A DNA stretch of 64,000 bases from contig JANRKS010000020.1 of the NCBI GenBank assembly GCA_033763315.1, forward strand, positions 32,001-96,000, read 5' to 3'. Position numbers and translations under genes: made by a program. The notes beneath the pieces were generated by a model. It did no database searches. It worked only from the letters and a program-made list of their open reading frames with translations, and was not told the origin of the DNA. This DNA comes from Deltaproteobacteria bacterium (GTDB lineage Bacteria > Myxococcota_A > Polyangia > Fen-1088). Below, piece by piece: positions 28,500-45,998 of the stretch. How positions within the stretch are numbered: the stretch's first letter is position 1; each line of letters begins with the position of its first letter.

Positions 28500-30782
28500 T
28501 TACGCCGCTTTTCGCGTCTGCAGCCGCTCTTTGCAAAGCGCTTCCACGGCGGTTACCTGGTGCGCCAGTTCGTTCAATTGCGCGGTGTTGAGCTGCCGCG
28601 TGCCAAATCGGACGGCCTCGTACGTCGCGACGATGCCCCCATAATCTTTCGCCAATGCGGACTCGGCTCGGCAAGCACGCTGCAAATGTTCCCGTGGTGT
28701 CTCTGATGCCTGCTTGGTGACGCCCAACGAACCCACCGCGCGAACGGACCGCTCGTAAAGCTTCTGCACAGCCCCTTGCGCCCCCGCGCGCGGCACCAGC
28801 CGTTGGCCAGGTTTCACGCGGCGCTTGCGGATGCGAAGCGCCACGTAGACTGCCAAACCAAAGGCCACCACACCGTAAACGAGGCGTTTATCGGGCTTAG
28901 GCAACGAGAAAGCTGACCCCGGCTGGCGTTTGAACCCGAGCGACTTTGCCAGCCCTCGTGCCAGATCAAGCTGGCGGCTGGCGTCGTATTCAATCACCCA
29001 CTGCCCCCACCACAACTCAATCGAGTCTGCGACTTGTTTAAGCCGGCTCATGCGCGAAGGCCGCGAGATGGCGGGGGTCGCATCCATGCGCGTCCAACCG
29101 AACCCAGAAAAATACACTTCCGTCCACGAGTGCGCGCGGTTGTCACGCACTGTCACCAGATTGGATAGATCGTTCCACTCGCCGCCCAAAAAGCCATTCA
29201 CATACCGGGTGGGCACGTCCGCGATCCGCAGCATGATGGCGGCCGCCGTCGCGAAGTATTCGCAATGACCGCTGCTTTGAACCATCAGGAAATCTTCAAG
29301 TGGATCTTTAACGGAAGGATCGCGCTTAAGATCGAGCGAGTACGTCTTGCTCCTGTGCAGCCACGTCATCACCGCCTGCGCTCGCGCGGCCGGTGTCTTG
29401 TGGTCAGCGGTGATGCGTCTCACCAACCCCGACAGACGCTTCCGTAGATCTGCAGGCACTTGCAGGTATGGTGCAAGCAAGCCCTCGGGCAGCTCGGTTA
29501 TGGCTTTGGCCGCGCCTGGGCGCGCACGCCGCAAGCTATCAATGGAGTAGGCCACGTAGCGTGCCCCCGCAAAATCCGCCAACGGCAACGCCCGCCCATA
29601 AGGCGAGGTACGCATCGTGCGCAGAGCGGCTTCGCCCGAATACCGAGCCTCAATTTGTGTTGATAAGAAGGCACCTGTCGCCGGCTCCTCCACTTCAAAC
29701 GCCACAGGCGAATCCAACGCAAACGCCACCGGCAAGCTCACTCCCATGATTTGAATCTCCTGCCGATCGGCCAACGCAAGCAGTTCCTTTCTCGACGGAG
29801 GTTTATCGGGCGTCTCGGGACCAGAAACCCATCTCCATTGATTGGGCCCTTGGCCAAACCCCGTGGAAAGCTTGGTGCGCGTGAGATCGGATCGTGACCG
29901 CAACCACTGGCCGTTTTCGTACGTGTCGTAAACGGTGCCACGCCAATAAAGGCTTGCAATCACGGCGTCGCGTGCTTCTTCTGAGGGCTGGTCAAGCAAA
30001 CGTGGCATTCCCACGCGCAAGATCACCGTTTGGTTGTCGCTTGAGATGTTGCCGTGGTGGCCAAGCTCCACTTGATCACTAAAGCCTGCCACGCTGCCAT
30101 GGCGTCGCACGCCGCCCGTCAAAAAACCAATGCCGATGCGGGGCGCCAGCGCGAACACAATGGTTGCCCCAGCCAGCACGGCCAATGCCGCGGCGGCCGT
30201 GGCATAAAAAAACGGGCGCCCCACCACGCGACGTGAATCCAACACGCGTGCGGCTGTCACCCGTTGTGCGGCCGTGGAAGCTTCGTGCTTCACTAAGTAA
30301 TTGTCTTCAATCTCTCGGCGCAAGTGAAACAAGATGAGCGCCCACACCAACGCCACCACATACACCGCGAATCCCAGCGCAAACAAAGCGCTTTGCGCCA
30401 ACCACGAGGCGGCCAAGATTAACAGAAAGGCCAGAATGTAAAGCTGCATGTAATCGCGGTTGGTTTTCCGCTGCATCAGCTTGTAGCCCACCAACACCAA
30501 TACTAAATCAAGCAGCGCGGTCAGATCGGGTTCAGGGAAGGACTGAACCAACGAAAACACCGTGATGCAGAAGTACCCCAGGACCAGAACTTTGAACGGC
30601 AAATCAAGCCGCACGAGCCACGCGCTCAGCTGGCTTTCGGGCTCCGCGAACCACGACAAAGTTCCCACGATCAGGCACGCGGCGATCTGAGCGAACGTCA
30701 AATTGCCTGCCGCTGCCAAAGTGCCAATGGCGGCGGCCACCATCAAATAAGACGAAGCTTTATGAGCGGCTCTGAACCTCAC
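28500..30782 (-). CDS. TgpA-like membrane transglutaminase-domain protein (DUF3488-TGase-DUF4129)
   Basis: N-terminal TM helices, GFSDQVELG, YWRG, GHCEYFA, RYVNGF.GGE, HSWTEVY..G.GW..MDATP. Confidence 0.9.
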   Translation of the reverse strand: MRFRAAHKASSYLMVAAAIGTLAAAGNLTFAQIAACLIVGTLSWFAEPESQLSAWLVRLDLPFKVLVLGYFCITVFSLVQSFPEPDLTALLDLVLVLVGYKLMQRKTNRDYMQLYILAFLLILAASWLAQSALFALGFAVYVVALVWALILFHLRREIEDNYLVKHEASTAAQRVTAARVLDSRRVVGRPFFYATAAAALAVLAGATIVFALAPRIGIGFLTGGVRRHGSVAGFSDQVELGHHGNISSDNQTVILRVGMPRLLDQPSEEARDAVIASLYWRGTVYDTYENGQWLRSRSDLTRTKLSTGFGQGPNQWRWVSGPETPDKPPSRKELLALADRQEIQIMGVSLPVAFALDSPVAFEVEEPATGAFLSTQIEARYSGEAALRTMRTSPYGRALPLADFAGARYVAYSIDSLRRARPGAAKAITELPEGLLAPYLQVPADLRKRLSGLVRRITADHKTPAARAQAVMTWLHRSKTYSLDLKRDPSVKDPLEDFLMVQSSGHCEYFATAAAIMLRIADVPTRYVNGFLGGEWNDLSNLVTVRDNRAHSWTEVYFSGFGWTRMDATPAISRPSRMSRLKQVADSIELWWGQWVIEYDASRQLDLARGLAKSLGFKRQPGSAFSLPKPDKRLVYGVVAFGLAVYVALRIRKRRVKPGQRLVPRAGAQGAVQKLYERSVRAVGSLGVTKQASETPREHLQRACRAESALAKDYGGIVATYEAVRFGTRQLNTAQLNELAHQVTAVEALCKERLQTRKAA

Positions 30783-31963
30783 GCGGCTTGCCCTCGCGCA
30801 CCACTGGCCAATGTCACGCGGGGCGCGCTATCCGCCATTGTTACGCGCGCCACGACCACGGCCGTGCCCAATGCGCCGCTTGGTGCCTTCACATCGTCCA
30901 TGGTCACGAGCGCCAAAGCAGCCAGCAGCGCGTGGCTTTGCTGGTTGCCTGCGCGCGATCCCACGCTCACCTGGCCGGCGGACAAGCCCACCTCATAGCC
31001 GCGCTTCAAGAACCACAACCCCACCGACGCGGCCATAGAAACGGCCTGCTCGAAAGCCTGGTTTTCGTTTTCCTGCCGCACTTCGGCCCACTGAAGTTTC
31101 ACCACCACGCGGCCGCCCGCATCGTCTTCATGCTCGCGCACGAGCCATCGACCGCGTCGTGCCGAACTTCGCCAGTGGATCTGCCGTGGATCATCGCCTT
31201 CGCGGTATTCGCGCAGCCCGTGAAATTCCCCTGACCGCGATGCACGTGCGTTGCGGCGATCCGGCAAAGGCGCGCCGCCCTCGGCCGCCAATAACTGTGG
31301 CACCGGCACAAGCGCGGGGTACACCAACATCTGCGCGTTGGCTGGGATATCGTGCGCTTTGCGAATCAACCCGAATGGAAACCGCGTTGACACGCGAAAG
31401 CCCACTAAGCGATGCACGCCCCGGTGGTTCACCACATTGCGGTACGCCGTCTCTTGTTCGCGTCCGGCGGGGATCTTTAAGAAATAGCAACGCCGCTCCA
31501 CAGGGCGCTCGTCCGTGAGATCTTCCACTTCCAAGGAAAACGTGGGCGTGCGCTTCTTGTTGTTGCGTACGCCAATGCCCATCAAAAACGGCGTGCCCGC
31601 ATGGATGGCCGTGGGCAACTTGCGCGTCACCACCAAATGCCGCAGGCACAACTCCGACATGATGCCGCTGGCCAAGATCAAAAACAGCATCATGCCGAAC
31701 ACCAAGAACAGCAGGTTCAACCCAGCGTTCACAGCGGCGGCGCCCACCACCAACGTGGCGCACATGAACCAAACGCCTTCACGCGTGGTTGGCAGACGTT
31801 TCCATAAACTGCGCTTCTTGCGAGCCCCGCCCGCGCGCGCAGGTGGCTCAGGCATCAACGTGCCGTGAATCGACGACGGCCGCGGCGGCGTGGTGCGTTC
31901 ACGAGCCGAACTCATCTGACCACTCCTAACCCGGCACAGGGAACTGATTGACGATCTCGCCAA
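30779..31963 (-). CDS. DUF58 domain protein (MoxR partner)
   Basis: TRFPFGL, EFHGLREYREGDDPRQIHWRSSAR; start may be further downstream. Confidence 0.88.
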   Translation of the reverse strand: MARSSISSLCRVRSGQMSSARERTTPPRPSSIHGTLMPEPPARAGGARKKRSLWKRLPTTREGVWFMCATLVVGAAAVNAGLNLLFLVFGMMLFLILASGIMSELCLRHLVVTRKLPTAIHAGTPFLMGIGVRNNKKRTPTFSLEVEDLTDERPVERRCYFLKIPAGREQETAYRNVVNHRGVHRLVGFRVSTRFPFGLIRKAHDIPANAQMLVYPALVPVPQLLAAEGGAPLPDRRNARASRSGEFHGLREYREGDDPRQIHWRSSARRGRWLVREHEDDAGGRVVVKLQWAEVRQENENQAFEQAVSMAASVGLWFLKRGYEVGLSAGQVSVGSRAGNQQSHALLAALALVTMDDVKAPSGALGTAVVVARVTMADSAPRVTLASGARGQAA

Positions 31964-32912
31964 TCACACGTTCGGCGTCATCGCGCGCGCGCCCACCTTC
32001 GGTGTGGTGGGCCAGCAGCACGCGGTGTGAAAGCGCTGCTACGGCGGTGCCCTTGAGATCATCGGGCAAAACAAAGTCCCGCCCGTCGGCCAAAGCGGAG
32101 GCCTTCGCTATGTTCCGCCACGCCAACTGGCCCCGCGGTGAAATGCCCAACGACAAAAACGGCGACCGGCGCGTCTCCCCCGCCACCGCCACGATGTAAT
32201 CCGCGAGCTCCGGCGACAGCCGCACGCGATCAGCAGCCTCTTGCAACGAAAGAATGTCGCGCAACAAAACGGCCGGCTTAATGGCCTCTACGGCCGCACC
32301 GGCCTTGCCCGGCATTTCCAGCAGCAAACGGCGCTCGTCTTCGGGCTTGGGGTAATCCAGCCGAATCCGCAGCACGAACCGATCCATTTGCGATTCAGGC
32401 AAAGGATAGGTGCCGTAGTGTTCTTCGGGATTCTGCGTGGCGATCACCATGAACGGCGTATCAAGTTTGTGCGTCTTGCCATCCACCGACACCTGGCCAT
32501 CGTTCATCGCCTCAAGCAGCGCGCTTTGCGTGCGCGGTGTGGTTCGGTTGATCTCGTCGGCCAAAACAACGTTCGCAAAAATCGCCCCGGGCTTAAAATC
32601 AAACATTCCGGTGCGCTGATCGAGCAACGACACGCCAATGATGTCGGAGGGCAACAGATCGCTTGTGAACTGAATGCGGTGAAACGTTCCACCGATCGAC
32701 CCGGCCAGCGCGCGCGCCAGTGTGGTCTTGCCCACCCCCGGTACGTCCTCAATTAACAAATGCCCCCGCGCCACCAGCGCCATGACAGCGCTGCGAATGG
32801 CCTCCGCCTTCCCGCGAATCACCTTCGCGATGTTCGCCTCAAGGCGGGCGATTAACTCCGACGAGTCTGCTTCGTAACCCTCGGCGGCAACAATACGGGT
32901 CATTTTTTCCAC
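31926..32912 (-). CDS. moxR: MoxR-family AAA+ ATPase
   Basis: EDVPGVGKT, RIQFTSDLLPSD, DEINRTTPRTQSALLEAM, ATQNP, GTYPLPESQMDRF. Confidence 0.95.
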   Translation of the reverse strand: MEKMTRIVAAEGYEADSSELIARLEANIAKVIRGKAEAIRSAVMALVARGHLLIEDVPGVGKTTLARALAGSIGGTFHRIQFTSDLLPSDIIGVSLLDQRTGMFDFKPGAIFANVVLADEINRTTPRTQSALLEAMNDGQVSVDGKTHKLDTPFMVIATQNPEEHYGTYPLPESQMDRFVLRIRLDYPKPEDERRLLLEMPGKAGAAVEAIKPAVLLRDILSLQEAADRVRLSPELADYIVAVAGETRRSPFLSLGISPRGQLAWRNIAKASALADGRDFVLPDDLKGTAVAALSHRVLLAHHTEGGRARDDAERVIGEIVNQFPVPG

Positions 32913-32981: not shown

Positions 32982-33413
32982 TTAAAGAGGGTTTCTTACG
33001 TCCAGAAATGCGAAGCGTCGAAAATCAGCATCGTTGGTGTAAAGCACCCTGACCTTGTGCTGAAGTAAAATGACGGCGATGTGTGCGTCGGGCACAAGAT
33101 TGCCTCTAACGGGCGCCTCCCCGGCGATTTTTTTGAACCGCATGAGCACGTCGGATTGCTCTGATAACAACCGCACGTGAGGCAACGAGAACAACGCCTC
33201 TAGATTCCCCATCGCCACTTCGGGTGCCAAGGGATTCCTGAGAATGCGCGGGTGTGTGACGATTCGCAGATACGCCATCGCCGCTGGGCACGGCACATAG
33301 ACCATCTCGTTCCCCCTGGCGCATTCGGTGAGGAACGCTTTCGCTCTGACGGCCTCCTGGCTACCTTCGTTCGAGGCGTAAATCAGAATGTTCGCGTCAA
33401 TAGCGAAGCTCAT
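32982..33413 (-). CDS. vapC: VapC-type PIN-domain toxin
   Basis: IDANILIYA, GNLVPDAHIA, TNDADFRRF, NPL. Confidence 0.9.
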   Translation of the reverse strand: MSFAIDANILIYASNEGSQEAVRAKAFLTECARGNEMVYVPCPAAMAYLRIVTHPRILRNPLAPEVAMGNLEALFSLPHVRLLSEQSDVLMRFKKIAGEAPVRGNLVPDAHIAVILLQHKVRVLYTNDADFRRFAFLDVRNPL

Positions 33414-33770: not shown

Positions 33771-34392
33771 TCATTCATCGGTGGTCGCCCCCGAAGCGGC
33801 GTCCCAAAGCTCGAAAAACTTCGGCCGAACGTACGCATGGAGTTCCTCGCCGAGGGTGCGTGGTAGGTGGGCAGCCCGAATCACTTCGAGCACGTCCGCC
33901 AAATCCTTTAACCGATGCGGCGCCGTCATCCCGGACGCAAGCTTTAACTCGAGGAACCGTGGCACGGGCAGCAGACGGACGGCATGACCTTGCTCTGCGA
34001 TGGCGGGATCGGGGAACGCCACTGGCTTAACCTTTCCATCACCCGGGTAGTCTCCCACTCAAAACCAGGTCAATCTCGACATTGTTCTCGGTGTCTCTAA
34101 AGCCGCGGCTGCCGGGAAATTTTTCTAAGTAACCCAGGCCCAAGCAGCCGGCCTTGAACTTCGCCAACCCGGCGGGCGTTAAAAGAACGTTCACGTCGCT
34201 GGTCATGCGGCGGTACCCAAGTTCGTTCAACGCCATCGCGCCCACGACCGCATACGGTATCTCGTGCTCCTCCAGCAGGTGCGCAAGCTTCTCCATGGCC
34301 TTGCGAACGTCTGATCCACCCATAAAAAACCGGCTGGCAGCGTCAACCCCCGCCCAGAAAGCGGCTTCGGCGGTTGGGTTCAGGGGTGGCAT
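33771..34392 (-). pseudogene. Frameshifted nucleotidyltransferase-like gene
   Basis: ...EIDLVLSG continues as GDYPGDGKVKPV in another frame at the GGG near 34055; VVGAMA and TSDVNV motifs, ending HRLKDLADV. Confidence 0.65.
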
Positions 34393-34450
34393 GGGTGGGC
34401 ACCTCAAGAAAGTTTACCACTGCCGGCGTTTGCGGGGCTATGAAGCGTTT

Positions 34451-35140
34451 ATGAGCGAAACGAACGTTGTGAATGCGCTGGATTGGCTGGACGAGGAGGG
34501 TTGGATCCCGGCGGATCCGGCACTGCGTGGGCGGGCCATCCGCATGGCACAAGCGATTGAATACGCCAGCACGCTTGAACCGGATGAATACCGGGGCACG
34601 ATGATTCCCTGCCAGCGGCAAACAGATGGGCAGCCGTGTCTCGGCTTTCTGATCGTCACGATGATGGACAATTACGATTTCGTCGCCCATTGCGATGAGT
34701 GCAACGAAGAAGAATTCGTCATCACGAACTGGCAGGGCACGGCTTGGGACGAAGGGGGCGACGATGAAGACGACGATGATGGCCCGTCGGTTTTTGCAAC
34801 GGAAGAGGTACAGGCGCGCTTTGAAGCGGCCTTGGAGGCGATCGCCTGCCCGTTGTCGGCCAACCGCTTGCTGGGGATCATGAGCTCCGCAGAATCACCC
34901 GCGGTTGTGATGGAAAAGATCATGAACGTGACGCCAGATCCGCCCAGCCAAAAGGCTGTAGACAAGTTTATCGCCGTCCTTATGGACACCTGGAACAACG
35001 TGCGGCGCCCCGAGCTTGGGGGCAAGACGCCTGCCGAGATGCGTTCCTCCGGCCCCATTGTGAAGGCCGCTTCACCGGGTAGAAACGCTCCCTGTCCCTG
35101 TGGCAGTGGGAAAAAATATAAACGGTGTTGTGCGAATTAA
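34451..35140 (+). CDS. SEC-C motif protein with an N-terminal Cys/Zn-like domain
   Basis: C-terminal PGRNAPCPCGSGKKYKRCC; WNN.RRPELGGKTP; ATG 34451. Confidence 0.8.
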   Translation: MSETNVVNALDWLDEEGWIPADPALRGRAIRMAQAIEYASTLEPDEYRGTMIPCQRQTDGQPCLGFLIVTMMDNYDFVAHCDECNEEEFVITNWQGTAWDEGGDDEDDDDGPSVFATEEVQARFEAALEAIACPLSANRLLGIMSSAESPAVVMEKIMNVTPDPPSQKAVDKFIAVLMDTWNNVRRPELGGKTPAEMRSSGPIVKAASPGRNAPCPCGSGKKYKRCCAN

Positions 35141-35355
35141 TTGTGCCATTGCCTACACAGGCGCACCTGTGAAACGCGTGTTTGCGACAGCGACCGGCGG
35201 CGAAAGTTACATTTGCGCCGATGGCTTCAGGTTTGCTGTGGGGCAATCGATGGTTGGTGCTGGATTTTATGCGTCAACGCAAAGTATTATTTTGCGGCCA
35301 GCGAACTAGCCCTGATACTCGCAGCAAAGCAATGAGAGTCCCGGTGGGAGGAATT

Positions 35356-38300
35356 ATGCGAAAAGTAGCCCTAGCAGCAGCGTTTTTGTCCGCGACAGTT
35401 GTCGCAGGATGTGGTGATGACCTTCCGTCGAACATCGACGCCAACGTCGTCGTAGCCGATGGCGGCGGCGGCAACACGGGCGAAGGTGGGGTCCTCCCGG
35501 ACGCAGGTTGCCCCAGCGCTACGTTTATCTCGCCGGTACCGGCTGCGAAGCTCACCGCGGCGGATGACGTGGACGATCAGTGCAAAGCCAATGGCTTTCA
35601 GATTGACGTGAAGCTGGCCGTTGGCGCTCCCGATGGCACCCCGGTTACCTTGCTGGCGAACAACACACCGGTGGGGACTCCCGGTGTGGTTACAGGGGGC
35701 ACGGTGACTTTTGCGGGTGTTTCGCTGGCGACGAGCGGTGCATCGGCACTGGTCGCGCAGATTGGCAACGCGACGGGCTGTACGGCAAGCAACACGGTAG
35801 ACATCAATTGTTCTGCGGTCACCTGTAACATCACGAAGCCGGTAATCAGCGAGGCTCACCCCAAGCTGAACGACGTACCGGTGGCAGAAGGCGGAGACCG
35901 CGTGAGCTCGCCCGGGTCTGACTACCAGGCCGCGTTTGAAGTGACGACGAACGCAGGCGACAACAGTGTTGTGCAGCTGCAGGTTCGCCGCGCCGATGCG
36001 CCTGACGCTGTCGTTAACGTGAACGCCACCGTTTTGGGCGGAAAAGCGAATTTCCCCGGCGTGGCTTTGCGGCCGGATGGTGCTTTTCAAATTCAAGCAG
36101 TGTGTAGGTCCGGAGCCGTTGAGGGACGCTCGCAGTTAGGCACCTTCACAGTGGATACGGCGAAGCCTGATTTGACGGTGACGTCACCGATCGCGAATCA
36201 GTTCTACGGTCCTAGCACGGGACCTGGCGACCTTGATGGCAAGGTTGTCAATGGCAAATTCAAGGTTTGCGCCAGCACCATGGCGGCTGACGCAACCAAT
36301 GTGGGGATGGCCATAAACGGCGGCAAGAACTTGGGAGCAGCGATAGGGACATCAGCGATGACCTACGTCCCTGTTGCCGTTGGCGGTTCTGCTGGCAGCG
36401 GATGCGTCGAATTGGATTGCCTCGGCGGTGCGCCGTTCTCAGTCAACGTGTCTCTACGAGACGATGCTGGCAACGTTGCGACTAAGTCGATTGCGGGCGT
36501 CACCTGTGCCTCTGCGCTTCCAGGCGTGCAGATTGTTCAGCCAGTATCAGACTCAGCACCATACACTGATCCTTCCAAGCATCTCCTTGCTGCGAACGCA
36601 ACGCAGGCGTTCAAGGACAACGATCCGGCGATTGGCGGCGCGCAAACCCTTGTGGTCGCTTGTACGGACAAGAAGCTTGCGAAGGCTAAACTCTTCGTCG
36701 GGGTGGAAGGCGGCGCGCTTGACCAGGTGGGGTCGGAAGTAGATGTTGTCGATGCCGTGACGGGCGATGGCTGTCCTGCGGGTCTCGGGTTCGTCGCAAA
36801 ATGGCCGAAAGCTACTCTGCGCGACAGCACAATGAACACCGCAGGGGGGCTCATCTCGCCGACTCAGCTTCGTGTCGAAGTAACGGAGGTTTCTTCGGCC
36901 AAGGGTCAAAGTCCCATCGTGAGCCTGTGGGTTGATTCTACTGCTCCTACAGCAGATCCCCGAACACCCGCATGCGGAACACTGATCGAATCCACTGTGG
37001 ACCAGACACGCGAGCTCACCCTGATAACGTCATCCGCCTTGATCAAGCTGGTGGTGACGTCGAACGGCGCTCCGGCTGAATACGACCCGACAAGTATCCT
37101 TGGTAGCGTCGCGACTTTCTCAAACGTGCTCTTAAAGGTAGGCGAGAACGTACTAACGGCGGTTGTGCGGGATCCAGCCGGCAACCAGTCAGGCTTGAGC
37201 GGGGCTGCCTGCGCCATCAAGGTGGGCACGCCCCCCATCGTGAATTTCGTTTCGCCGGCGACAAATGCAAAACTCTGTGCTGTAGGTGGTTCAGGCTGCG
37301 TCGCAGATGCAGACGGCGCTACGGATGGTTGGCAGGGCACCGTCACTGTTTCGGTTACTGTTGCCGGAACTCCAGCTACGACAGGCACCGTGACTCTATC
37401 TAAGACAGGAGGAGATGCTATTGGGACTTCCAACGTGGTCAATGGCGTGGCCACCTTTTCAAGCGTCACGATTCCTGAAGGCACCGTGGCTATTTTAGCT
37501 GCCACCAGCGAATACCCATCGGCCGGAGTTGGTACAACAGCCTCCGCATTCACAGTCGATTCAAAAGTTCCCTCGGCGGTCGCCTCTTTGAGTGCGGAGA
37601 TACTTACAAGGCGAGAGTCGTCGTTTAAGCTTCGCTGGACGGCCCCTGACGACAATGGCCAACCCGCCGCGGCCTACGATATTCGAGTCTCCGAGGCCCC
37701 CTTGACCGAAGGAAATTTTTCTGCGGCTGAGGCGCTGACGTTTGCCGGTGTTCCGGCCGCTTCGGGCCAAGCAGAAGCCCTGGATGTTCGAGGCCGGAAA
37801 ATCGAAGCTGACTACTACTTCGGTGTCGTACCAGTCGACGCGGCCGGCAACCGTGGCCCCCTAGTGAAGCTCGATTTACCCACCCGCGCCTCCTTCAATA
37901 GGACCATCCTCAGCCCGCCGAGCATCGACCCCGACCAAACCAAAGAAGACGAGGCCGGCTATTCTGTCTCAGGGTACGGAGATCTAAACGGAGACGGCCG
38001 TGGCGACGTCATCGTGGGGACTCGACTAGGCAAGCGGGTGTTGGTCTATTTCGGCACGGCAATGTTCTCTCCCGACGCTCCCTCGCTGACTATCACCGGA
38101 ACCAGCGCCGGCTTTGGGCGGCATGCCATGCTTGTAGGCGATGTTGTTCAAAACCCTGATGAGCCGTCTAGTAGCAGCAAACCGGACCTAGCTGTGGCGT
38201 CTTCGGCCAACAAGATGTTCATTTTCGCGGGTCGGACGACCTGGCCCGCGACATTATCGGAGGCTGACGCTGATTTCGTTATCGACGGCGCTGGTAGCTC

Positions 38301-39222
38301 TGGACTTTTCGGTTACGTCTTGGCTCCTCTCGGGGATTTCGACTCGGATGGCATAGACGATTTGGCAATAGGAAATCCAACCTATGCCAGCAAAGGCCGG
38401 GTAGTGATTCTCCGTGGCTCCAAGTCTATGCCCGACACGGTATCGGTACCGGATGCTGCGAGGACCATACTGATCGACGGTTCGGCTGCTAACGGCCTCT
38501 TTGGCCTCAACTTGCAGGGTCTAGGCAAATTCTATTCTGGCGCAGGGGCGAGCCTCGTCGTTGGCGCTGACAGGGCCAACAGTGACGCCGGCAAAGTCTA
38601 CGTTTACAAGGGGCAGGCGGCGTTGTCTGGTTCGATTACTTCCTTCGATGCCAGTATTGACGGATCGCCGGGCAGTCGCTTGGGAGGGAATTTGGCAACG
38701 CTGGGACCAGTTAATGGCAGCACGAATGCCATCGGGCTGGCTTCGCTGTTCGCCGGAACCGGCGTCGTTCAATTGTACTTCGGCAACGAAACGGCAGGTC
38801 CCCTTGGTGGCACCTCAAAATCACTCACGAATGCGTCAGCGGTTGGTACGAACCAGTTCGGAATCGTCACCATCGGTGGGGCCTTCTCGGGTTCGGTGGC
38901 GGCATTTTCGCTGATAGGCAACGATGCTCCTGATATCGTTGTCGCTCCAACCCGCGAAGGCTCGGCTCCAGGCAAGCTCTATGTTTTGGATGGCTCGCAA
39001 TTGGGTAGCTTGGCGGCGTCCTCCGACGTAACGACCGCGGGAATAGCGTCCGTGGTATTGCCTTTGCCCAACGGCGAGAATGGAACGCGACCGTGGTTGG
39101 GGAATTCCAGCTTCAGTCGCCTCGTAAGGGATGTGGATGGTGATGGATACGTTGACCTTGCCATAGGCGAAGGCTCGTTGCCGGCATCCGACCGGCGTGG
39201 GCGAGTTCTTGTCTTCTGGTAA
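35356..39222 (+). CDS. Large surface lipoprotein with Ig-like, FN3 and FG-GAP (integrin-like) repeats
   Basis: GGAGG RBS, MRKVAL...VAGC lipobox; D.AGN repeats, LRWTAP.D (FN3), GDLNGDGRGDVIVG, GDFDSDGIDDLAIG, DVDGDGYVDLAIG. Confidence 0.85.
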   Translation: MRKVALAAAFLSATVVAGCGDDLPSNIDANVVVADGGGGNTGEGGVLPDAGCPSATFISPVPAAKLTAADDVDDQCKANGFQIDVKLAVGAPDGTPVTLLANNTPVGTPGVVTGGTVTFAGVSLATSGASALVAQIGNATGCTASNTVDINCSAVTCNITKPVISEAHPKLNDVPVAEGGDRVSSPGSDYQAAFEVTTNAGDNSVVQLQVRRADAPDAVVNVNATVLGGKANFPGVALRPDGAFQIQAVCRSGAVEGRSQLGTFTVDTAKPDLTVTSPIANQFYGPSTGPGDLDGKVVNGKFKVCASTMAADATNVGMAINGGKNLGAAIGTSAMTYVPVAVGGSAGSGCVELDCLGGAPFSVNVSLRDDAGNVATKSIAGVTCASALPGVQIVQPVSDSAPYTDPSKHLLAANATQAFKDNDPAIGGAQTLVVACTDKKLAKAKLFVGVEGGALDQVGSEVDVVDAVTGDGCPAGLGFVAKWPKATLRDSTMNTAGGLISPTQLRVEVTEVSSAKGQSPIVSLWVDSTAPTADPRTPACGTLIESTVDQTRELTLITSSALIKLVVTSNGAPAEYDPTSILGSVATFSNVLLKVGENVLTAVVRDPAGNQSGLSGAACAIKVGTPPIVNFVSPATNAKLCAVGGSGCVADADGATDGWQGTVTVSVTVAGTPATTGTVTLSKTGGDAIGTSNVVNGVATFSSVTIPEGTVAILAATSEYPSAGVGTTASAFTVDSKVPSAVASLSAEILTRRESSFKLRWTAPDDNGQPAAAYDIRVSEAPLTEGNFSAAEALTFAGVPAASGQAEALDVRGRKIEADYYFGVVPVDAAGNRGPLVKLDLPTRASFNRTILSPPSIDPDQTKEDEAGYSVSGYGDLNGDGRGDVIVGTRLGKRVLVYFGTAMFSPDAPSLTITGTSAGFGRHAMLVGDVVQNPDEPSSSSKPDLAVASSANKMFIFAGRTTWPATLSEADADFVIDGAGSSGLFGYVLAPLGDFDSDGIDDLAIGNPTYASKGRVVILRGSKSMPDTVSVPDAARTILIDGSAANGLFGLNLQGLGKFYSGAGASLVVGADRANSDAGKVYVYKGQAALSGSITSFDASIDGSPGSRLGGNLATLGPVNGSTNAIGLASLFAGTGVVQLYFGNETAGPLGGTSKSLTNASAVGTNQFGIVTIGGAFSGSVAAFSLIGNDAPDIVVAPTREGSAPGKLYVLDGSQLGSLAASSDVTTAGIASVVLPLPNGENGTRPWLGNSSFSRLVRDVDGDGYVDLAIGEGSLPASDRRGRVLVFW

Positions 39223-40999
39223 ACCAACGTTCTCCCACTTTTGTGCGGTCTTTACGGATGAGGACGGCGCAATGTGGGCCAGTCTCCCGGCGACGGCGAT
39301 ACGCGTTCGTTGGGAAGACTGGCCGGCAAATACCGCCACACATGCCCTTTATTCGGACGGTGATAGAATTTGCCTCGCAACTGGACGTGTAGATAACCTC
39401 AGCGACTTAGGGAAAACAGCAGGCATCAATGTCCCCTTTGGGACAAATCTTCCCTTCTGTATAGCGGCGCTGTACCGAAAATTGGGCAGCAGGCTGTTTG
39501 ACAAGATCGAAGGCGACTTATCGGTTGTAATTGGAGATCGTCCAAGCCGAAGTGTGCTTGCGTATCGAGACGCATTCGGCGTAGGACAACTATTTTCTTG
39601 GGAATCAGGGCGAACCCAGATTCTGTCTTCGTCCTGCGACCTTTTGCTTTCGCTATTGCCGCGGAGGCCAGCGATCGATGAAGTGACGGTGTGCGAATAC
39701 CTTTCGGGACGCCCTCGCTTCCTAGATCGCACTTACTTCAAGACGATACGTTCGATCAGGCCCGGTCATGTCGACGTGACATCCGGGGGCCGTCGGCAGA
39801 CCAGTTGCTCAACCCGCTTGACGCCCAAAGGCGACGCCGAGGAGAGCGACGTGATTTTCGCTCTACGGAAGTCCGTGTGGCATCGCCTTTTCGACACGCG
39901 GAGCGCAGTTGTTCATTTGAGCGGGGGTCTTGACTCATCAGCGATATCCGCTCTGGCGGATGCTTTGAAGAATGATGGTGAACTCCCTTCGACTGATCTC
40001 CACCTCCTTTCTTCTCTTTTCCCTGGGACGGCCTCGGATGAGAGCCGGGGGATACGGAGGACCTTGACGCAGCTCCGCTTGCCCTGGAAATCACGTGACG
40101 CGACATCCTTCCCATTCTTCTGCCCTTCAACGATTGCTCTCGATCGCCCATCGTTTCGCCCGTGGTTACTAAACCCCGATCCTACCGAGTTCGCCCTAGC
40201 CCGCGAAGTCCACGCAGAAGCGAGCTTAACTGGCTTCGGTGGTGACGAACTCTTCTATTCAGTCGGGGCGATAGCCGAGGCCTTGAAGGCTGGCCACCTA
40301 GCAACGTTCGCCAAACAGTTGTTTAGGTTTACTCGGTGGCACCATAGAGGTGCCGTTCTGGCGACTATCAGGGACGCATTACAGGCTGAGAAGCTTGGTA
40401 AATGGCCGTGCGCACCCGTAACACCTCCACCCGAGTGGTTGGCCCCAAATGCAAGACCTTACTGGGAAGAAATGAACCGGTCACCCGTCGACTATGCGAT
40501 CGAACCATCCGAAGCGACCGAGAACGTGACACTCAGTAGGATTTTCGGGCCATCTATGCTGCGATCAGCGCATTCGAGGACTTGGATTGGAGCTGAAAAT
40601 GGCGTTGCGATGAGATTTCCGTACCTTGAGAAGGACGTTGTCGAGACGGTCCTGGGATTGTCCCGACGCCCACCGAATGGCGATGCGCGCCATCTTCAAA
40701 GGAACATGCTCAAAACCCTCCTTCCTTTTGTCGGGGTCCAGAGGCGGAAGAAGACATCCGTAGGCCCGGTGATGTGGTCTAACCTTCGAAAAATACGAAC
40801 CGAAATCGCCGACTATTGGCGTTCCGATTGGCTGGTGGGGAGTTATGTCGAGCGCAGCTTCGTGGGGGCTGCGGACAAGGCACTGTCGAAAGTATTAGAT
40901 CCTGGCCCACATACGCCTGTCTGGAGTCTGCCAATCCTTAGGGTGCTTACGCTAGAAGCTTGGCTGCGAAGGATTTCTGGCTATAATAGACTGTCTTAA
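39197..40999 (+). CDS. Lasso peptide cyclase (asparagine synthetase-like, C protein)
   Basis: RDAFGVGQL, HLSGGLDSS, LTGFGGDELF, RFPYL.KDVVE; no N-terminal catalytic Cys of AsnB; immediately upstream of the precursor and B2; start could be ATG 39272. Confidence 0.85.
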   Translation: MGEFLSSGKPTFSHFCAVFTDEDGAMWASLPATAIRVRWEDWPANTATHALYSDGDRICLATGRVDNLSDLGKTAGINVPFGTNLPFCIAALYRKLGSRLFDKIEGDLSVVIGDRPSRSVLAYRDAFGVGQLFSWESGRTQILSSSCDLLLSLLPRRPAIDEVTVCEYLSGRPRFLDRTYFKTIRSIRPGHVDVTSGGRRQTSCSTRLTPKGDAEESDVIFALRKSVWHRLFDTRSAVVHLSGGLDSSAISALADALKNDGELPSTDLHLLSSLFPGTASDESRGIRRTLTQLRLPWKSRDATSFPFFCPSTIALDRPSFRPWLLNPDPTEFALAREVHAEASLTGFGGDELFYSVGAIAEALKAGHLATFAKQLFRFTRWHHRGAVLATIRDALQAEKLGKWPCAPVTPPPEWLAPNARPYWEEMNRSPVDYAIEPSEATENVTLSRIFGPSMLRSAHSRTWIGAENGVAMRFPYLEKDVVETVLGLSRRPPNGDARHLQRNMLKTLLPFVGVQRRKKTSVGPVMWSNLRKIRTEIADYWRSDWLVGSYVERSFVGAADKALSKVLDPGPHTPVWSLPILRVLTLEAWLRRISGYNRLS

Positions 41000-41017
41000 C
41001 TGATAGCGGAACCGCAT

Positions 41018-41185
41018 ATGACCAAGCAAAGCTCGAAGGCCAAGTCCGTCACTGAACTGAAAGAGAAATCCTACAGGGCTCCCGAGGTGAGGGCTGTGGG
41101 AAACCTAAAGGACTTAGTGTCAGGTGGACTGGGAACTGTCCAGGACGGAGGAGAGCTTCCAGGTGAGGATCGACAGGCTCAATAG
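41018..41185 (+). CDS. Lasso peptide precursor (55 aa)
   Basis: Hand translation: MTKQSSKAKSVTELKEKSYRAPEVRAVGNLKDLVS-GGLGTVQDGGELPGEDRQAQ; YxxPxVxxxG leader motif; Gly1 and Asp8 in the core. Confidence 0.85.
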   Translation: MTKQSSKAKSVTELKEKSYRAPEVRAVGNLKDLVSGGLGTVQDGGELPGEDRQAQ

Positions 41186-41197
41186 CAAAGGTGACTG

Positions 41198-41554
41198 TTG
41201 CTCAGAGCGGGCATCCTAGTGTGTCTGGTGGCGCCCTTGGTTGAAGCCTTGCGAAGGTCTTCTGATGCCGCCACTGCGCTTGGGATTTGTAGAGCCGTAG
41301 GACGTTATCAACCGACGAAGGAAGGAAGATTCAAGGACAGCCTCGCCCGATGTGTGTCGGGAGTGGATCTTCGGATGCCTGGAGGACCAAACTGTTTTCG
41401 GAGAGTACTTCTGCTCTCCGCATGTGATAGGTCTGCTGCGCTGACGTCGGTTAAATTCGGAATTGTGGCGGGTGGCGGGGCTAAGTCCGGTCACGCCTGG
41501 CTGGCATCTGAAAGTGTGGATGTAAGCCTCTACGACGCGGTCTTCGACCTATAG
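41198..41554 (+). CDS. Lasso peptide leader peptidase B2 (transglutaminase-like)
   Basis: NCFRR (cf. CLxRS), VKFGI, GHAWL; directly after the precursor. Confidence 0.8.
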   Translation: MLRAGILVCLVAPLVEALRRSSDAATALGICRAVGRYQPTKEGRFKDSLARCVSGVDLRMPGGPNCFRRVLLLSACDRSAALTSVKFGIVAGGGAKSGHAWLASESVDVSLYDAVFDL

Positions 41555-42570
41555 TTTCTGATCGCGGCTTGAAGACTGTCAAGGTTGCTTGGACTGTCGA
41601 GTGCCGCTGAACGGCAATTAGCAGCGAGGTGGCACGCGGACCTAAATGCCCCTATCAACGTGGGTGGTTGCGAAGTTCCGATAAAGAGATTCTGAAACAA
41701 CTCAGTAGCAGCTTCAAGGGGCGCAAGCTGTCGAAATCCGAACTCCTCTCTGTCGCTACGTCTCTGGGCGCTAATGTGCCATATCCACGAAAGCGGCTCC
41801 CACGAGTCGGTCGAAAGCACTGGGAATTCTAAGTACGAGTGGTGATCAGCTGCGAGGTGGGTTGCTGCGGCCCGAGCCCATTCCCGAACTTGGCTTTCAA
41901 ATGTAGAGGCCACAAGCGGCTGCGACTCCTTGTTAGCGGATCGGAGACCCTGTACTACGCAGAGATCCTCTGATACCAGCCTAGCTCCTTGGCTCTGAAA
42001 GGCACGTGCGAGTGTCGTCTTGCCGGCCCCACTGTGACCGACGGCCATAACGGTTTCTCCTTCCACTTGAAATGCGGAAGCGTGCACTACGAAGTGTCCC
42101 CGCGCGGAGAGCAACTTGGGTGCCACCGCTAGAAGCGCTCGATAGGCGAAGGACATTTGTCCCTCCAAAGGACCAGCGAGCCATCGAATGACGAAGTCTT
42201 CTTTTTCGATGTTTACGATTGCCGATTTTTCGAGCGTGAGTTCCCAGCAGTCCGCCTTTTCAACAAAGGAGAAGTCGCCGGTCCATCTCGCTCGTTCGAG
42301 GGGTACAAAGTCCAACAGGTGTGACAACAATGTCGAACTAATTCCGACCGCCTCCGGCAACGATACCTTCATCAACTCAGCTACCTGGGAGAAGGCAGCT
42401 TCCATGCTGGGAGAGCTTAGGAGCACCTTTATGACCAGCTGCGCCTCGTCATTGAGGCTGAAGAGCTCACCAGTCTCGGCATCAAGGAGTAGGGAATCGA
42501 GAGCCACAGATTGCAGAAAGAAGCGGCTCTTAAGGTCCTTGATTTCCATGTGAGGTTTCGATGTAGTCAT
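41530..42570 (-). CDS. RRE(PqqD)-fused HPr-kinase-like P-loop protein, candidate lasso tailoring kinase
   Basis: N-terminal LLLDAETGELFSLNDEAQLVIKVL (PqqD-like); VVHASA, GHSGAGKTT, LVSED. Confidence 0.75.
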   Translation of the reverse strand: MTTSKPHMEIKDLKSRFFLQSVALDSLLLDAETGELFSLNDEAQLVIKVLLSSPSMEAAFSQVAELMKVSLPEAVGISSTLLSHLLDFVPLERARWTGDFSFVEKADCWELTLEKSAIVNIEKEDFVIRWLAGPLEGQMSFAYRALLAVAPKLLSARGHFVVHASAFQVEGETVMAVGHSGAGKTTLARAFQSQGARLVSEDLCVVQGLRSANKESQPLVASTFESQVREWARAAATHLAADHHSYLEFPVLSTDSWEPLSWIWHISAQRRSDREEFGFRQLAPLEAATELFQNLFIGTSQPPTLIGAFRSACHLAANCRSAALDSPSNLDSLQAAIRNYRSKTAS

Positions 42571-42851
42571 TCGGGTTGGCCCGGTTGGATATCCAGCAAA
42601 CCCCAGGCTTGTAGTTTGCCAACCACCGACGACACATCGGAAGTTGCTGCCTCACCTCCGCCGCACTCATTCTTAACCTCTTTGATCAAGTCTTCGAGAG
42701 ATGTCGGCTTGGAGAGCATCCTCCATACGAAGTAAGCAGTCTCGTTGAGTTCCCAGCAGTCCCCCGAGCGCGCGTCAACGAGTACTGCTCCGGCGCTGGT
42801 TGGGCGGCTCAGGACGTTAGGATTGGTCTGATATCGCATCCGCACATTCAT
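42567..42851 (-). CDS. Stand-alone PqqD/RRE (lasso B1) protein
   Basis: AVLVDARSGDCWELNETAYFVWRML..P.SLEDLI...DV..VV.KL..WGLL; overlaps the kinase start. Confidence 0.85.
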   Translation of the reverse strand: MNVRMRYQTNPNVLSRPTSAGAVLVDARSGDCWELNETAYFVWRMLSKPTSLEDLIKEVKNECGGGEAATSDVSSVVGKLQAWGLLDIQPGQPE

Positions 42852-43671
42852 GGCTGTCAGCAAGGTCTTTAGCTCTTGACCCCTCCCATAGCGTGGCTAT
42901 CCCTGCAAGTTAACACTGCCGAAGCATCAGTTAGCGCCTGAGCGTTGGCACGATGAAGGCATTGACGTTGATCTCTCTCCTAGGATACCAGGAACCAGGG
43001 TGTTGTTGTAAGGCGAGGTGCATCCATCACCCCTTCACGCGATGGCCTCGCAGTCGGGCAATCAACCCGTCGGACGATTGATCCGGTGGTACTGCCTGCC
43101 GTTTTTAACGCTGGCTCGTGTTTGTACGGCTTGGCTCGCTGCCAATCAAACCAACTGCGAGGAGAGAGGACCTCACGCTGCAACAGTGCCCCAATCACTA
43201 GCAATGCCTCTTTACCTTGTCCTCCAGCACGACCCAAAAGATCGAAACAATACACTGGACGTTCGGCCGCGCGCAGGCTCGACGCTCCTCCATGACCGGT
43301 TCGGGCGAAGGCGCATCGCATCCTACCTAGAGCTGGTGGCGCGGTTCCTTACAAGAGAGGTGGGGGGCCCGGAGACGATGAAGAGACGTCCGCCTTGTTC
43401 GATGCGGCTCAGCTTGCCAACCCATGACGAAGCGCCCTACATCCGCGTCCGGGGGTTCACCGCTGCTTTGCCTGCCGTAATCGTCACCCCCTCGCGGACG
43501 ACTTGCACCCGAACGATGCCGGGGATGTGGTGTTGAGCCAGACTGATGGCCAGCCGTATCGAGCCTCCCCAACTGACGAAGATGAGGCGATCCGTCGTGC
43601 GGATGGCGCCCCCATTTCAAAGCTTCTTTGCACGAGCGCTCCGTGCGGCCGCTGCGCAAGAAAGACCCGCA

Positions 43672-44181
43672 TCAGCCCCCCAAGACATCGCGCACAGAAG
43701 CCGCCGTCAGGGCCGCCGCATGCCACTTCCGCAACAACGCAACGTCGCGGCTGCGTTCAATGCGTTCGCGCTCTTCTTCCAGCGGTTCCAATCCCCGTAG
43801 GCGCAGCACGGCGAGAACCGCTTGCGCTAGGCGATAGGCCTCTCCCTCCGCCTTGCCCTCCGCCTTGCCTTCCGCCTTGCCTTCGCTGTGGGCCCGTCGA
43901 AGGCTTTGGTCTTGGAATTGGTAGTTTTGTGGAATCATGTTCAAAGCCTTTTTGACTTGATCGCTCAGTGCAGCCCGGATGAGATCGTAATAATACATCG
44001 CCGTTCGACCGTCGGGCAGGCTCAGCGCCGCCTCGATGGCCGTGCGAGCTATCTTGACTGCGCGGGTCGTGTTTTTGTCGTGCCCGTGGCAGATCGCCGA
44101 AAGAACCGCTAACGCTGTGTTCTGTTCAGCTTGCGCCAAGTCCCCTACGGCAGGCATTTGGTCCGGCCCCAGGACAACACG
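43672..44181 (-). pseudogene. 5'-truncated remnant of an Rpn/transposase_31-like (EGKAEG-repeat) protein
   Basis: VLGPDQMP..., LAVLSAICHG, EGKAEGKAEGKAEG, VLRLRGL, L..W..AALTA.S; an in-frame stop lies just upstream, so the N-terminal domain is missing. Confidence 0.6.
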
Positions 44182-44350
44182 AGGAAGGCTGCTCTCGAAG
44201 CATTTCTACGATCGCTTGGTGTCGTTGCGACGGCACACCCGGTCTTCGGCACACGCTCGCAACTGTTGCTTACAAAACGCAACCGCCCTCAACACACTTA
44301 AGCGGTGGTATTCTTGGCGTTTCGAAACGAACGTCTTTAAGCGATATCAG

Positions 44351-45271
44351 ATGCCTCAAAGCAACGACGATCTCTTCTCCCGCAATCTCACGCACACCCA
44401 GCAGCTCTTGCGGGAGGCCGAGGAGGTGCTGCAACGGCTTGCTAGGAACCGCGCGGCCATGGCGCGGCCGCGCGTGATGGTTCCAGCTTTGGTCGAGCCG
44501 CCACCGCCCCACGTGCCCGAACCCCCACCGCCTTTGGAGCTCTTGGCCAAGCGGCGACGAGCGCCGAACGAAATAACGCATGAGGAACGAAGTGGTTTTA
44601 CGCGCCTTTTCGCCAAGCGCGGATTTATCGTCAATGCCGACCTGCGCGCTATTTCCGGGTTGGACGTGGCGCAGGCAAGCGTGCGTCTGCGTGTTTTCCG
44701 TAACGCAGAATTATTGCGACAAGATGGCCTTGGTTCCCTGACAAAATATTACCCCGGTCCACGGTGGCAGCCCCTAGAGCTGGAACCGCATGCCGCGCCC
44801 CCGCCCAATCCCGCTGAGATAAACGTCACCATTGGCACGCCACGCGATGTACAAGCGCTTGCAAATCTGCGCGCGCAACAGGTGCAACCAATGACCGTTG
44901 TTACATCAAGCGAGGCGTCAGGCAAAATCGAGAATTTATTGCGGCAGTTGCGCTCGCGCCGCAATGTTCTGCTTCTTGCATCCGATGTGGAGGGCAATCT
45001 CGTCGGTTATTTGCACTGCGGCTTGGACGAAAAACGGGGCGATCGCATCGGCTCTATCTATGCGTTCTATCTTGCCCCTGGTGCGCACCAGAACGCTCGG
45101 CTTCGTTTATTTGAAACCGCGAAGCGGTGGTTGACCCAACAAGGCGCCTTAAGGATTCGTGTGCAGGTGCCGCATGAGGCCTCGCCCGCGCAAGCCTTCT
45201 TTGCAGAGCAACAATTTAACCCCGCCAGCGTTGAAATGGAGCTGTTTGTGGGAGCCACGGTCAAGACGTAA
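44351..45271 (+). CDS. Winged-HTH plus GNAT acetyltransferase fusion protein
   Basis: IVNADLRAISGLDVAQAS.RL...LLRQDGLGSLTKY (wHTH-like); LVGYL...IYAFYLAP...LFETAKRWL...AQAFF (GNAT); ATG 44351. Confidence 0.6.
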   Translation: MPQSNDDLFSRNLTHTQQLLREAEEVLQRLARNRAAMARPRVMVPALVEPPPPHVPEPPPPLELLAKRRRAPNEITHEERSGFTRLFAKRGFIVNADLRAISGLDVAQASVRLRVFRNAELLRQDGLGSLTKYYPGPRWQPLELEPHAAPPPNPAEINVTIGTPRDVQALANLRAQQVQPMTVVTSSEASGKIENLLRQLRSRRNVLLLASDVEGNLVGYLHCGLDEKRGDRIGSIYAFYLAPGAHQNARLRLFETAKRWLTQQGALRIRVQVPHEASPAQAFFAEQQFNPASVEMELFVGATVKT

Positions 45272-45428: not shown

Positions 45429-45998
45429 TTAACCTCGAAACACGGCATCAAGCGCGACGCTGACTTCAGCGAATGCAGGCCAGGTCAGTGATGAGGTGCT
45501 GCCCACCACTGCACTCTGTTGATAGCGGCCATCGACTGAATTCAATCGCCATTGCGTAACCGTACGCAGATCTGGATCCGCTACCCAGTATTCGGGAATG
45601 CCGAAACGTTCATAAAGGTGCAGCTTCAGCTGCAGATCGCGCTCTCCTGAACTTGGTGACAAAATCTCCACCACGAGATCCGGAACACCTTCGATGCCTC
45701 GGTTTGTGATGATGCCTTCGCGCGCCTTCGAAACAACCACGAGGTCTGGCTGCACCACGGTCTCGTCATCCAGCATAAGGTCGATGGGCGCGTCGAATAC
45801 CTGTGCAAGCCCTGTCTCCTCAAGTTGCTTCATAAGCGCAAACTGAAGACGGCGAGACACCGTCTGGTGGCGCGGAGCGGGGGCGGGGGTCACGTAGAAG
45901 TCTCCTTCGATAAGCTCGTGACGCTTGCCATCCTCGGGAAGCAGGCAGTACTCCCGGTATGTGAAGGGGCGGGGGCGTGGAGCCGACTGAGAACGCAC
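45429..45998 (-). CDS. Uma2-family (DUF820) endonuclease-like protein
   Basis: RHELIEG, PAPRHQ, VQPDL, PDLVVEILSPS, GIPEYWVADP. Confidence 0.92.
   Translation of the reverse strand: MRSQSAPRPRPFTYREYCLLPEDGKRHELIEGDFYVTPAPAPRHQTVSRRLQFALMKQLEETGLAQVFDAPIDLMLDDETVVQPDLVVVSKAREGIITNRGIEGVPDLVVEILSPSSGERDLQLKLHLYERFGIPEYWVADPDLRTVTQWRLNSVDGRYQQSAVVGSTSSLTWPAFAEVSVALDAVFRG

Follow-up and report, generated by a model that had tools for sequence, protein, structure and literature searches.

A split-B lasso peptide cluster with a kinase fused to its own leader-binding domain in a Polyangia genome

What does a set of lasso peptide genes make when it is accompanied by a kinase that carries a leader-binding domain of its own? 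This question is raised by a five-gene locus in a 64,000-nucleotide stretch of DNA (contig JANRKS010000020.1, our C20, positions 32001–96000; hereafter the window) from a 7.6-Mb, 40-contig genome. On the plus strand lie C (39197–40999, 600 aa), an Asn-synthetase-like, ATP-dependent macrolactam synthetase homologous to lasso cyclases; A (41018–41185), a 55-aa precursor with a leader of residues 1–35 and a 20-residue core, GGLGTVQDGGELPGEDRQAQ; and B2 (41198–41554, 118 aa), a putative transglutaminase-like Cys/His leader peptidase. Facing them on the minus strand are B1 (42567–42863), a stand-alone PqqD-type recognition element (RRE) for ribosomally synthesised peptides that undergo post-translational modification (RiPPs), and K (41530–42570, 346 aa), in which the fold model and profile matches reveal an RRE, a small β subdomain and a kinase core of the HPr kinase (HPrK)/phosphoenolpyruvate carboxykinase (PEPCK) fold. 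An earlier reading made from the nucleotide letters alone (the sequence-only reading) had described these five open reading frames (ORFs) as a complete lasso cluster with a kinase in a myxobacterial host. All five are found where it placed them, save that the last coordinate it gave for B1, 42851, marks an ATG inside the frame, which extends to 42863; the 25-bp overlap that it saw between the coding ends of B2 and K is likewise present, at 41530–41554. The B1 stop overlaps the K start in an ATGA on the minus strand, by which B1 appears to be translationally coupled to K. All five ORFs are open and retain their catalytic motifs. Sequence, fold and comparative evidence bear out the claim of a complete set, supporting a full split-B lasso complement (C, A, B1 and B2) plus a kinase; we are confident of the gene set, of how it is conserved and of the RRE-kinase architecture. 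The nearest named relatives, metagenome-assembled genomes (MAGs) labelled 'Polyangia bacterium' and 'Myxococcales bacterium', agree with the proposed host.

We searched 40 related genomes, 24 of which belong to the same family, and recovered full-length or nearly full-length K homologues (25–32% identity) in 11 of these 24. The comparison set consists of these 11 family loci and eight loci of MAGs named 'Polyangia bacterium', 'Myxococcales bacterium' or 'uncultured proteobacterium' (L022–L029). The layout of C-A-B2 facing K recurs in 19 other loci of Polyangia/Myxococcales MAGs and relatives, with C found in 18 loci and B2 in 19. Counting the window, B2 and K converge in all 20 loci, and their coding ends overlap by 8–31 bp in 15, by exactly 25 bp in eight. 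Because the same five genes recur in the same convergent layout at only 23–46% protein identity, the arrangement is far more than chance. No terminator can lie between B2 and K, and their transcripts may therefore be complementary at the ends; the ..TAS that closes K, a conserved ending, is encoded antisense to the ..YDA motif of B2. In L016 (7270–8541) and P0003, B1 precedes the RRE-kinase within one protein, which then has two PqqD domains, and this fusion of B1 to the N-terminus of K supports the two working together. Among other variants, an S-adenosylmethionine methyltransferase is fused to B2 in L072 (8338–9774), and a PF14907 nucleotidyltransferase is inserted in the clusters of L017 (4235–5155) and L021 (6420–7295).

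An AlphaFold model of K from an 18-row alignment (mean predicted local distance difference test score, pLDDT, 91) resolves an RRE at residues ~10–86, a small β subdomain at 101–130 and the HPrK/PEPCK core at ~157–346. Residues 10–86 are modelled as three strands followed by three helices; residues 9–89 superimpose on the leader-bound lasso B1 protein 6jx3_B (VIA-align; Z 7.9, root-mean-square deviation 3.0, 81/85 aligned), and the N-terminal part fits TbiB1 (5v1u_A) at Z 7.9. Similarly, the lasso-PqqD sequence model matches residues 27–71 (E 4e-5), a PqqD match at E ≤ 0.01 is present in all 10 K homologues scanned, and B1 shares 32% identity with the RRE of K over 38 residues. On the kinase side, residues 157–346 align with HPr kinase/phosphatase (HPrK/P) at Z 8.0–8.2 (1jb1_A, 8.2), residues 97–344 with PEPCK 1ii2_B at Z 9.6, and Foldseek returned HPrK/P and PEPCK. 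Judged by its modelled structure, K is a true RRE fused to an HPrK/PEPCK-fold kinase; both halves of the fusion named in the sequence-only reading are confirmed by fold, with the sequence score for Hpr_kinase_C under its cut-off.

The catalytic features of K comprise a P-loop (G178–T186), H163, E201 and D202; H163, G178, S180–K184 and T186 are invariant in 18 of 18 K homologues and D202 is nearly so. A relevant reference is the bsf cluster of Bradymonas sediminis FA350 (BsfA, B1, B2, C, D, K and N; Duan et al. 2023, PMC10368454), whose kinase BsfK accepts only the linear precursor, which it phosphorylates at ring Ser3 of the core in a reaction accelerated by BsfB1 (PMC10368454). Mutagenesis identified H148, G163, K169, S170, D186 and D187 as important in BsfK (PMC10368454), and K residues H163, G178, G181, G183, K184 and D202 align to BsfK H148, G163, G166, G168, K169 and D187.

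We modelled K in complex with A. The complex scored an ipSAE of 0.82 (runs 0.81, 0.85 and 0.82), against 0.01 for the best of three controls; the mark used for such scores is attained by 116 of 157 solved complexes and by 2 of 215 mismatched pairs. Contact agreement among the runs was at least 64% and partner pLDDT at least 53. Leader residues 23–31 of A pair with K strand 33–40, and the confident interface extends to A residue 40, which is core Thr5. The model supports binding of the leader of A to the RRE of K.

No family match was returned for A in the profile scans, and its assignment comes from conserved leader and core motifs. We set the core register by Tyr at −17, as established for BsfA, in which Y lies at −17 and Ile at −2, with an inferred Gly1–Asp8 ring (PMC10368454). 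Under this register the leader of A ends in ...DLVS, with Val at −2 followed by the core GGLGTVQDGGELPGEDRQAQ, and displays Y(−17), P(−14), V(−12), G(−8) and V(−2). None of Y19, P22, G28 (−8) and D43 (the ring Asp) varies among the 20 aligned precursors. Related precursors keep a YxxPxLxxxG leader with a hydrophobic residue at −2, and in most cases Gly1 and Asp8 as well; the window precursor deviates at −12, where Leu is replaced by Val. A has the form of a lasso precursor, a leader followed by a residue 1 that can be joined to an Asp/Glu at positions 7–9.

Among 16 family cores, Gly1 is present in 14 and Asp8 in 13. Every one of the 16 carries a Ser/Thr at ring positions 2–5, the overall Ser/Thr content being 16%; position 5 is Ser/Thr in 11/16 and position 3 in 5/16, and a C-terminal Ser occurs in 2/16. 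The window core ends in Gln, contains no Ser and has Leu as residue 3. Because Thr5 is the one hydroxyl residue of this core, a lasso phosphorylated on Thr5 within the ring is predicted. The calculated monoisotopic masses are 1982.929 Da for the linear core, 1964.919 Da for the lasso and 2044.885 Da for the phospho-lasso, so that the product would be a very acidic phospho-Thr5 lasso of 2044.885 Da. A single possible acceptor makes this a clean prediction of a new phosphosite register. As a further feature of the family, nine of the 16 cores (L012–L018, L021 and L025) hold exactly two Cys, of which one generally sits at the C-terminus or close to it, a pattern suggestive of disulfide-locked lasso classes; Cys is absent from the window core and from six other family cores.

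The remaining machinery was examined by profile and motif. C matches Pfam Asn_synthase (PF00733) at 75.6 bits (cut-off 21), with a weak GATase_7 match at its N-terminus, and contains SGGLDS from residue 242 and TGFGGDE from residue 345. The PP-loop SGGxDS is kept in all 18 aligned C sequences (the window and 17 homologues), and none of the 18 has the Cys at position 2 that serves as N-terminal nucleophile (Ntn) in a true amidotransferase. C therefore has the make-up of a lactam synthetase, Asn-synthetase-like and devoid of the glutaminase Cys, in keeping with the cyclase described from sequence alone. Judged by alignment with relatives, GTG 39197 or TTG 39209 is a likelier start than ATG 39273, and a sequence search of the PDB gave no match for C at E ≤ 0.001. 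Cys66 and His99 of B2 are shared by all 12 aligned homologues, 10 of which match Transglut_core3 (PF13471) at E ≤ 0.01; a B2 profile run against the PDB gave chance-level matches only. B1 matches PqqD (PF05402) at 52.2 bits (cut-off 23.4) and the solved lasso B1 protein TfuB1 (6jx3_B) at E 2.5e-5, which identifies it as a PqqD-type RRE, and scores 50.3 bits on the NCBIfam lasso-PqqD model (cut-off 70). The profile searches proposed in the sequence-only reading were thus positive for Asn_synthase and PqqD, with Transglut_core3 falling under its cut-off on the window B2 (16.3 against 26 bits). PADLOC defence models matched none of the five cluster proteins. Searching the genome with the lasso B2 model NF033537 missed the window B2 itself and gave two weak matches elsewhere, a result uninformative on further lasso clusters.

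Considering this evidence, we regard as probable that the locus is a split-B lasso cluster of two convergent operons, (lipoprotein)-C-A-B2 and B1-K, following a Thr5-phospho-lasso pathway; the lipoprotein gene is described below. In the proposed first step, an RRE would bind A through the YxxPxV...G leader, a role supported by the model for the RRE of K and suggested for B1 by homology and bsf biochemistry. K, which keeps residues essential in BsfK, would then phosphorylate the linear precursor at Thr5. B1 would present the leader to B2 (Cys66/His99) for cleavage after Ser35, with Val at −2 according to the BsfA register. Finally, C would adenylate Asp8 and join it to the amine of Gly1, yielding an eight-residue ring through which a 12-residue tail is expected to thread.

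Several observations weigh against this pathway. The family scores are low: C reaches 78.8 bits on the NCBIfam lasso cyclase model NF033535 (cut-off 525), B2 reaches 16.3 bits on Transglut_core3 (cut-off 26) and 16.9 bits on lasso_biosyn_B2 NF033537 (cut-off 33), and the Hpr_kinase_C match of K, at residues 161–209, reaches 21.8 bits (cut-off 33.3). In the complex model the P-loop of K lies outside the confident interface with A, and the high score may mirror likeness to solved RRE-leader complexes. Five of the 16 family cores have no Ser/Thr at position 5, and by our own reading the window tail contains few bulky residues able to lock a thread. The acceptor in bsf is position 3, not 5 (PMC10368454); moreover, the mature bsf lasso went undetected in five heterologous hosts (PMC10368454), and cyclisation is unproven even for this closest relative.

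Some of these points converge on a first alternative, that the cluster makes a lasso and K does not act on Thr5, serving instead another substrate or acting as an ATP-binding scaffold or second leader-binding chaperone, with an unmodified lasso of 1964.919 Da as product. The position of the P-loop, the sub-threshold Hpr_kinase_C match and the 11/16 frequency of Ser/Thr at position 5 all fit it, and where a single peptide is served by two RREs, one of them could have a structural role. K nevertheless keeps the catalytic residues important in BsfK, Ser/Thr is universal at ring positions 2–5 of the family cores, and the kinases of this kind described in the available parts of PMC8498205, PMC10368454 and PMC13381572 all act on the precursor peptide. 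We therefore consider this alternative unlikely.

It is also conceivable that the genes are intact and that the product is unthreaded, a branched-cyclic or linear phosphopeptide, or that the pathway is silent or decaying. The core is Gly- and acid-rich and, by our own reading, lacks aromatic plug residues; it also lacks the two Cys that could form a disulfide lock in nine of 16 relatives. The bsf product has never been observed (PMC10368454), and the lasso genes are hyper-divergent. Against this stand the five open ORFs with their catalytic motifs, and the retention of the cluster at the same chromosomal site across many genera, which argues for selection; overall, we find this alternative quite unlikely. 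That the locus is not a RiPP cluster at all, C being a true asparagine synthetase or amidotransferase and A an ORF by chance, is scarcely credible: C scores similarly on the AsnB equivalog TIGR01536 (82.3 bits) and on the lasso cyclase model, yet both scores are far under the cut-offs (267.1 and 525) and the Ntn Cys is missing in all 18 C sequences, which sets C apart from a glutamine-dependent asparagine synthetase; the small ORF, for its part, shows a lasso leader that is conserved and a ring Asp found in all 20 precursors, and in every locus RRE and peptidase genes flank it.

How widespread is the RRE-kinase fusion, and has it been described? An exhaustive search with K among 1.84 billion cluster representatives (50% identity) returned 1910 relatives at E ≤ 0.001, 204 at E ≤ 1e-10 and three at E ≤ 1e-30. 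Of the 150 strongest matches, the majority have lengths of 320–345 aa and align from roughly residue 15 through to the end. When ten representatives were looked up, five had names (four 'hypothetical protein', one 'PqqD'), and in the Atlas K falls among clusters that bear PqqD and belong to Myxococcota, Pseudomonadota and Bacillota. A phylum-wide search with a kinase profile matched 129 of 401 genomes at E ≤ 1e-8; nearly all matches cover the kinase core only, and we draw no claim on distribution from them. The sole full-length match was in G346 (positions 5–338), and that in G430 covers 59–338. In the literature searched, which did not include the primary paeninodin papers, we found no description of RRE-kinase fusions or of Polyangia kinase-lasso clusters, and the text, figures aside, of one supplementary file of the bsf study (PMC10368454) contains no 'PqqD', 'fused', 'Myxococc' or 'Polyangi'. 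The label 'uncharacterised' given in the sequence-only reading accordingly fits the window cluster and the RRE-kinase fusion; it does not extend to the kind as a whole, since 2023 saw the partial characterisation of a related kinase-lasso system from Myxococcota.

Directly upstream of C lies a gene for a large lipoprotein with Ig-like and fn3 domains and an FG-GAP propeller (FG-GAP 55.1 bits). Its ORF spans 35182–39222 (+), and the likely start, by our own reading, is ATG 35356, as read from MRKVALAAAFLSATVVAGC with the lipobox VAGC, giving a protein of ~1290 aa (35356–39222). The stop overlaps the C start, and the gene is probably co-transcribed with C. Orthologues, which carry Big_13, fn3 and FG-GAP, occur at 39–47% identity in 13 of the 24 family genomes, and in 13 of the 19 other loci an orthologue immediately precedes C on its strand.

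The lipoprotein and lasso genes together form a six-gene block (35356–42863) with only 24–38% identity to its counterpart in G001 (L020), a genome of the same genus, against 72–89% for flanking genes. Within the block, the lipoprotein is 37%, B1 34%, K 25% and C 24% identical; on the flanks, MoxR is 89%, electron transfer flavoprotein (ETF) beta 85%, ETF alpha 81% and DUF58 72% identical (the last over a partial alignment of 126 residues). The block sits in a conserved frame, between MoxR-DUF58-TgpA and ETF alpha/beta, and thus appears to be a hyper-divergent island at a fixed chromosomal site. Pairwise matrices of the lipoprotein, K and C over nine loci show the same two closer pairs, L020–L021 and L018–L026; the six genes therefore seem to travel and diverge together.

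These features invite a further reading, in which the lasso genes and the Ig/fn3/FG-GAP lipoprotein form one co-diversifying unit, the acidic and hypervariable (phospho)lasso acting as a surface ligand, cofactor or 'key' for the propeller protein and the pair serving strain-level recognition rather than antibiosis. It would account at once for the operon link, the lack of exporter and immunity genes and the divergence of the block; if true, lasso-lipoprotein recognition could underlie kin discrimination, adhesion to prey or partners, or evasion of phage or predators. An obligatory functional link is argued against by G011 and G013, which have the lasso genes and no orthologous lipoprotein, and by the eight loci outside the family, only one of which (L070 of G052) has an FG-GAP neighbour, on the other strand and of another architecture; surface proteins, furthermore, often evolve fast for reasons of their own. 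We rate this reading a long shot. FG-GAP adjacency as a general rule was rejected on the same counts. More broadly, the single chromosomal site across a Polyangia family, the tie to the lipoprotein and the excess divergence form a pattern that points to a biotic interaction; to our knowledge, the native functions of the lasso peptide class are mostly unknown.

The island borders in the window hold extra genes without a counterpart in G001; in that genome the lipoprotein gene directly adjoins MoxR, and ~500 bp separate B1 from ETF alpha. The left border has a gene for a PIN-domain protein (32982–33413), small ORFs and a gene for a SEC-C-motif protein (34154–35140); beyond them, the MoxR AAA ATPase, DUF58 and TgpA-like transglutaminase genes form an operon-like row (28500–32912, −) that is syntenic in at least eight related loci. 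On the right are two ORFs without a Pfam match, at 43672–44157 (−) and 44036–45271 (+, its C-terminal end GNAT-like by eye), and a Uma2 endonuclease-like gene at 45429–45998.

The ORFs scanned across ~23.8–48 kb of the window include no ATP-binding cassette (ABC) exporter, consistent with the absence of an adjacent exporter reported in the sequence-only reading; the non-antibiotic role that it attached to this absence is speculation. The best PF14907 nucleotidyltransferase match in the whole genome reaches 25.5 bits (cut-off 31.2), and a phosphoglycosylated product is therefore not expected. A look-up of sequencing runs that contain the locus, RNA runs included, listed none. A scan for regulatory sites gave no signal, with two promoter-like sites against 3.2 expected and seven terminator-like sites against 9.7 expected. 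One sigma-70-like site in the 3' end of C (40960–40987, +; TTGGCT, 16-nt spacer, TATAAT, 10/12 matches) lies 31 bp before the precursor start, and is only a lead given that the scan total is below chance.

Finally, we compared the window cluster with known kinase-linked systems. The sequence-only reading had likened it to paeninodin-type lasso peptides, whose kinases (PadeK, ThcoK and SyanK) (poly)phosphorylate a C-terminal Ser and tailor the linear precursor before leader removal, according to the available parts of PMC8498205 and PMC5067487. The two share an HPr-kinase homologue in the cluster, established here by fold (Z 8.0–8.2), and a B1/B2 split. The analogy fails at its defining point, as the window core ends in Gln and a C-terminal Ser is found in just two of the 16 family cores; paeninodin clusters, as described in those parts, also contain an ABC transporter. 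Pseudomycoidin, made with a kinase, PsmK, plus a nucleotidyltransferase, PsmN (PMC8498205, in the part available), resembles the window system as a kinase-linked lasso pathway, and the relatives L017 and L021 carry PF14907; unlike it, the window genome has no PF14907 over the cut-off.

In the LPP family of Bacillota, as far as the accessible part of PMC13381572 describes it, the kinase LppK acts on S3 with a discrete RRE, LppB. Like the window cluster, LPP combines an HprK-like kinase and an RRE, which in LPP act on a Ser near the core N-terminus, and has a leader motif, [Y/W]xxPx[V/L], of similar form; unlike it, LPP is described there without a cyclase or B2, with a signal-peptidase-like protease and with the RRE as a separate protein. 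Pairing of an HPrK-like protein with a PqqD-type protein is also seen in the NCBIfam 'HPr-rel-A system' (kinase TIGR04352, PqqD TIGR04353) and in the SynChlorMet cassette (ScmC PF27840, ScmD TIGR04248). K and B1 score far under the cut-offs of these models (25 against 200, 23.4 against 35 and 25.8 against 100), and two relatives, P0006 and P0007, bear a PF27840 annotation.

The closest studied system is bsf, not paeninodin. Both belong to the same phylum and have split B1 and B2, an HPrK-like kinase with a motif in common and a ring Ser/Thr of the linear precursor as target (by prediction in the window), a Y(−17)xxP(−14) leader with a hydrophobic residue at −2 (Ile in bsf, Val in the window) and a predicted Gly1–Asp8 ring with Gly4. 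The bsf description is fitted by L070 of G052, a genome from another class of the phylum, with the order FG-GAP protein, C, A (a 21-aa core ending in Asp), ABC transporter, B1, K, B2, PF14907 and rpsL/rpsG; the kinase alignment of the G052 family reproduces the residue numbers printed for BsfK (PMC10368454). An FG-GAP protein thus borders both clusters, that of G052 lying on the opposite strand and combining FG-GAP with PKD. K and the bsf-type kinase align at an hhalign probability of 98.5 (columns 155–337), and BLASTP aligns 44 residues, in the catalytic half only.

The differences are equally clear. The model of the bsf-type kinase (pLDDT 88.9) has an all-β N-terminal region and no RRE, whereas the window kinase carries a B1-like RRE besides the separate B1. 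The window genes form two convergent operons with overlapping ends, unlike the co-linear, single-strand bsf genes, and the ABC exporter and PF14907 of bsf are both absent from the window cluster. Moreover, the acceptor in bsf is Ser3, whereas residue 3 of the window core is Leu and only Thr5 is available. Kinase-tailored lasso peptides are already known, bsf being the one case in which phosphorylation of the ring was demonstrated (PMC10368454); the locus adds a variant to this kind rather than a separate class. With a K that has its own RRE while a separate B1 is kept, it offers a natural system for learning how two RREs share one leader.

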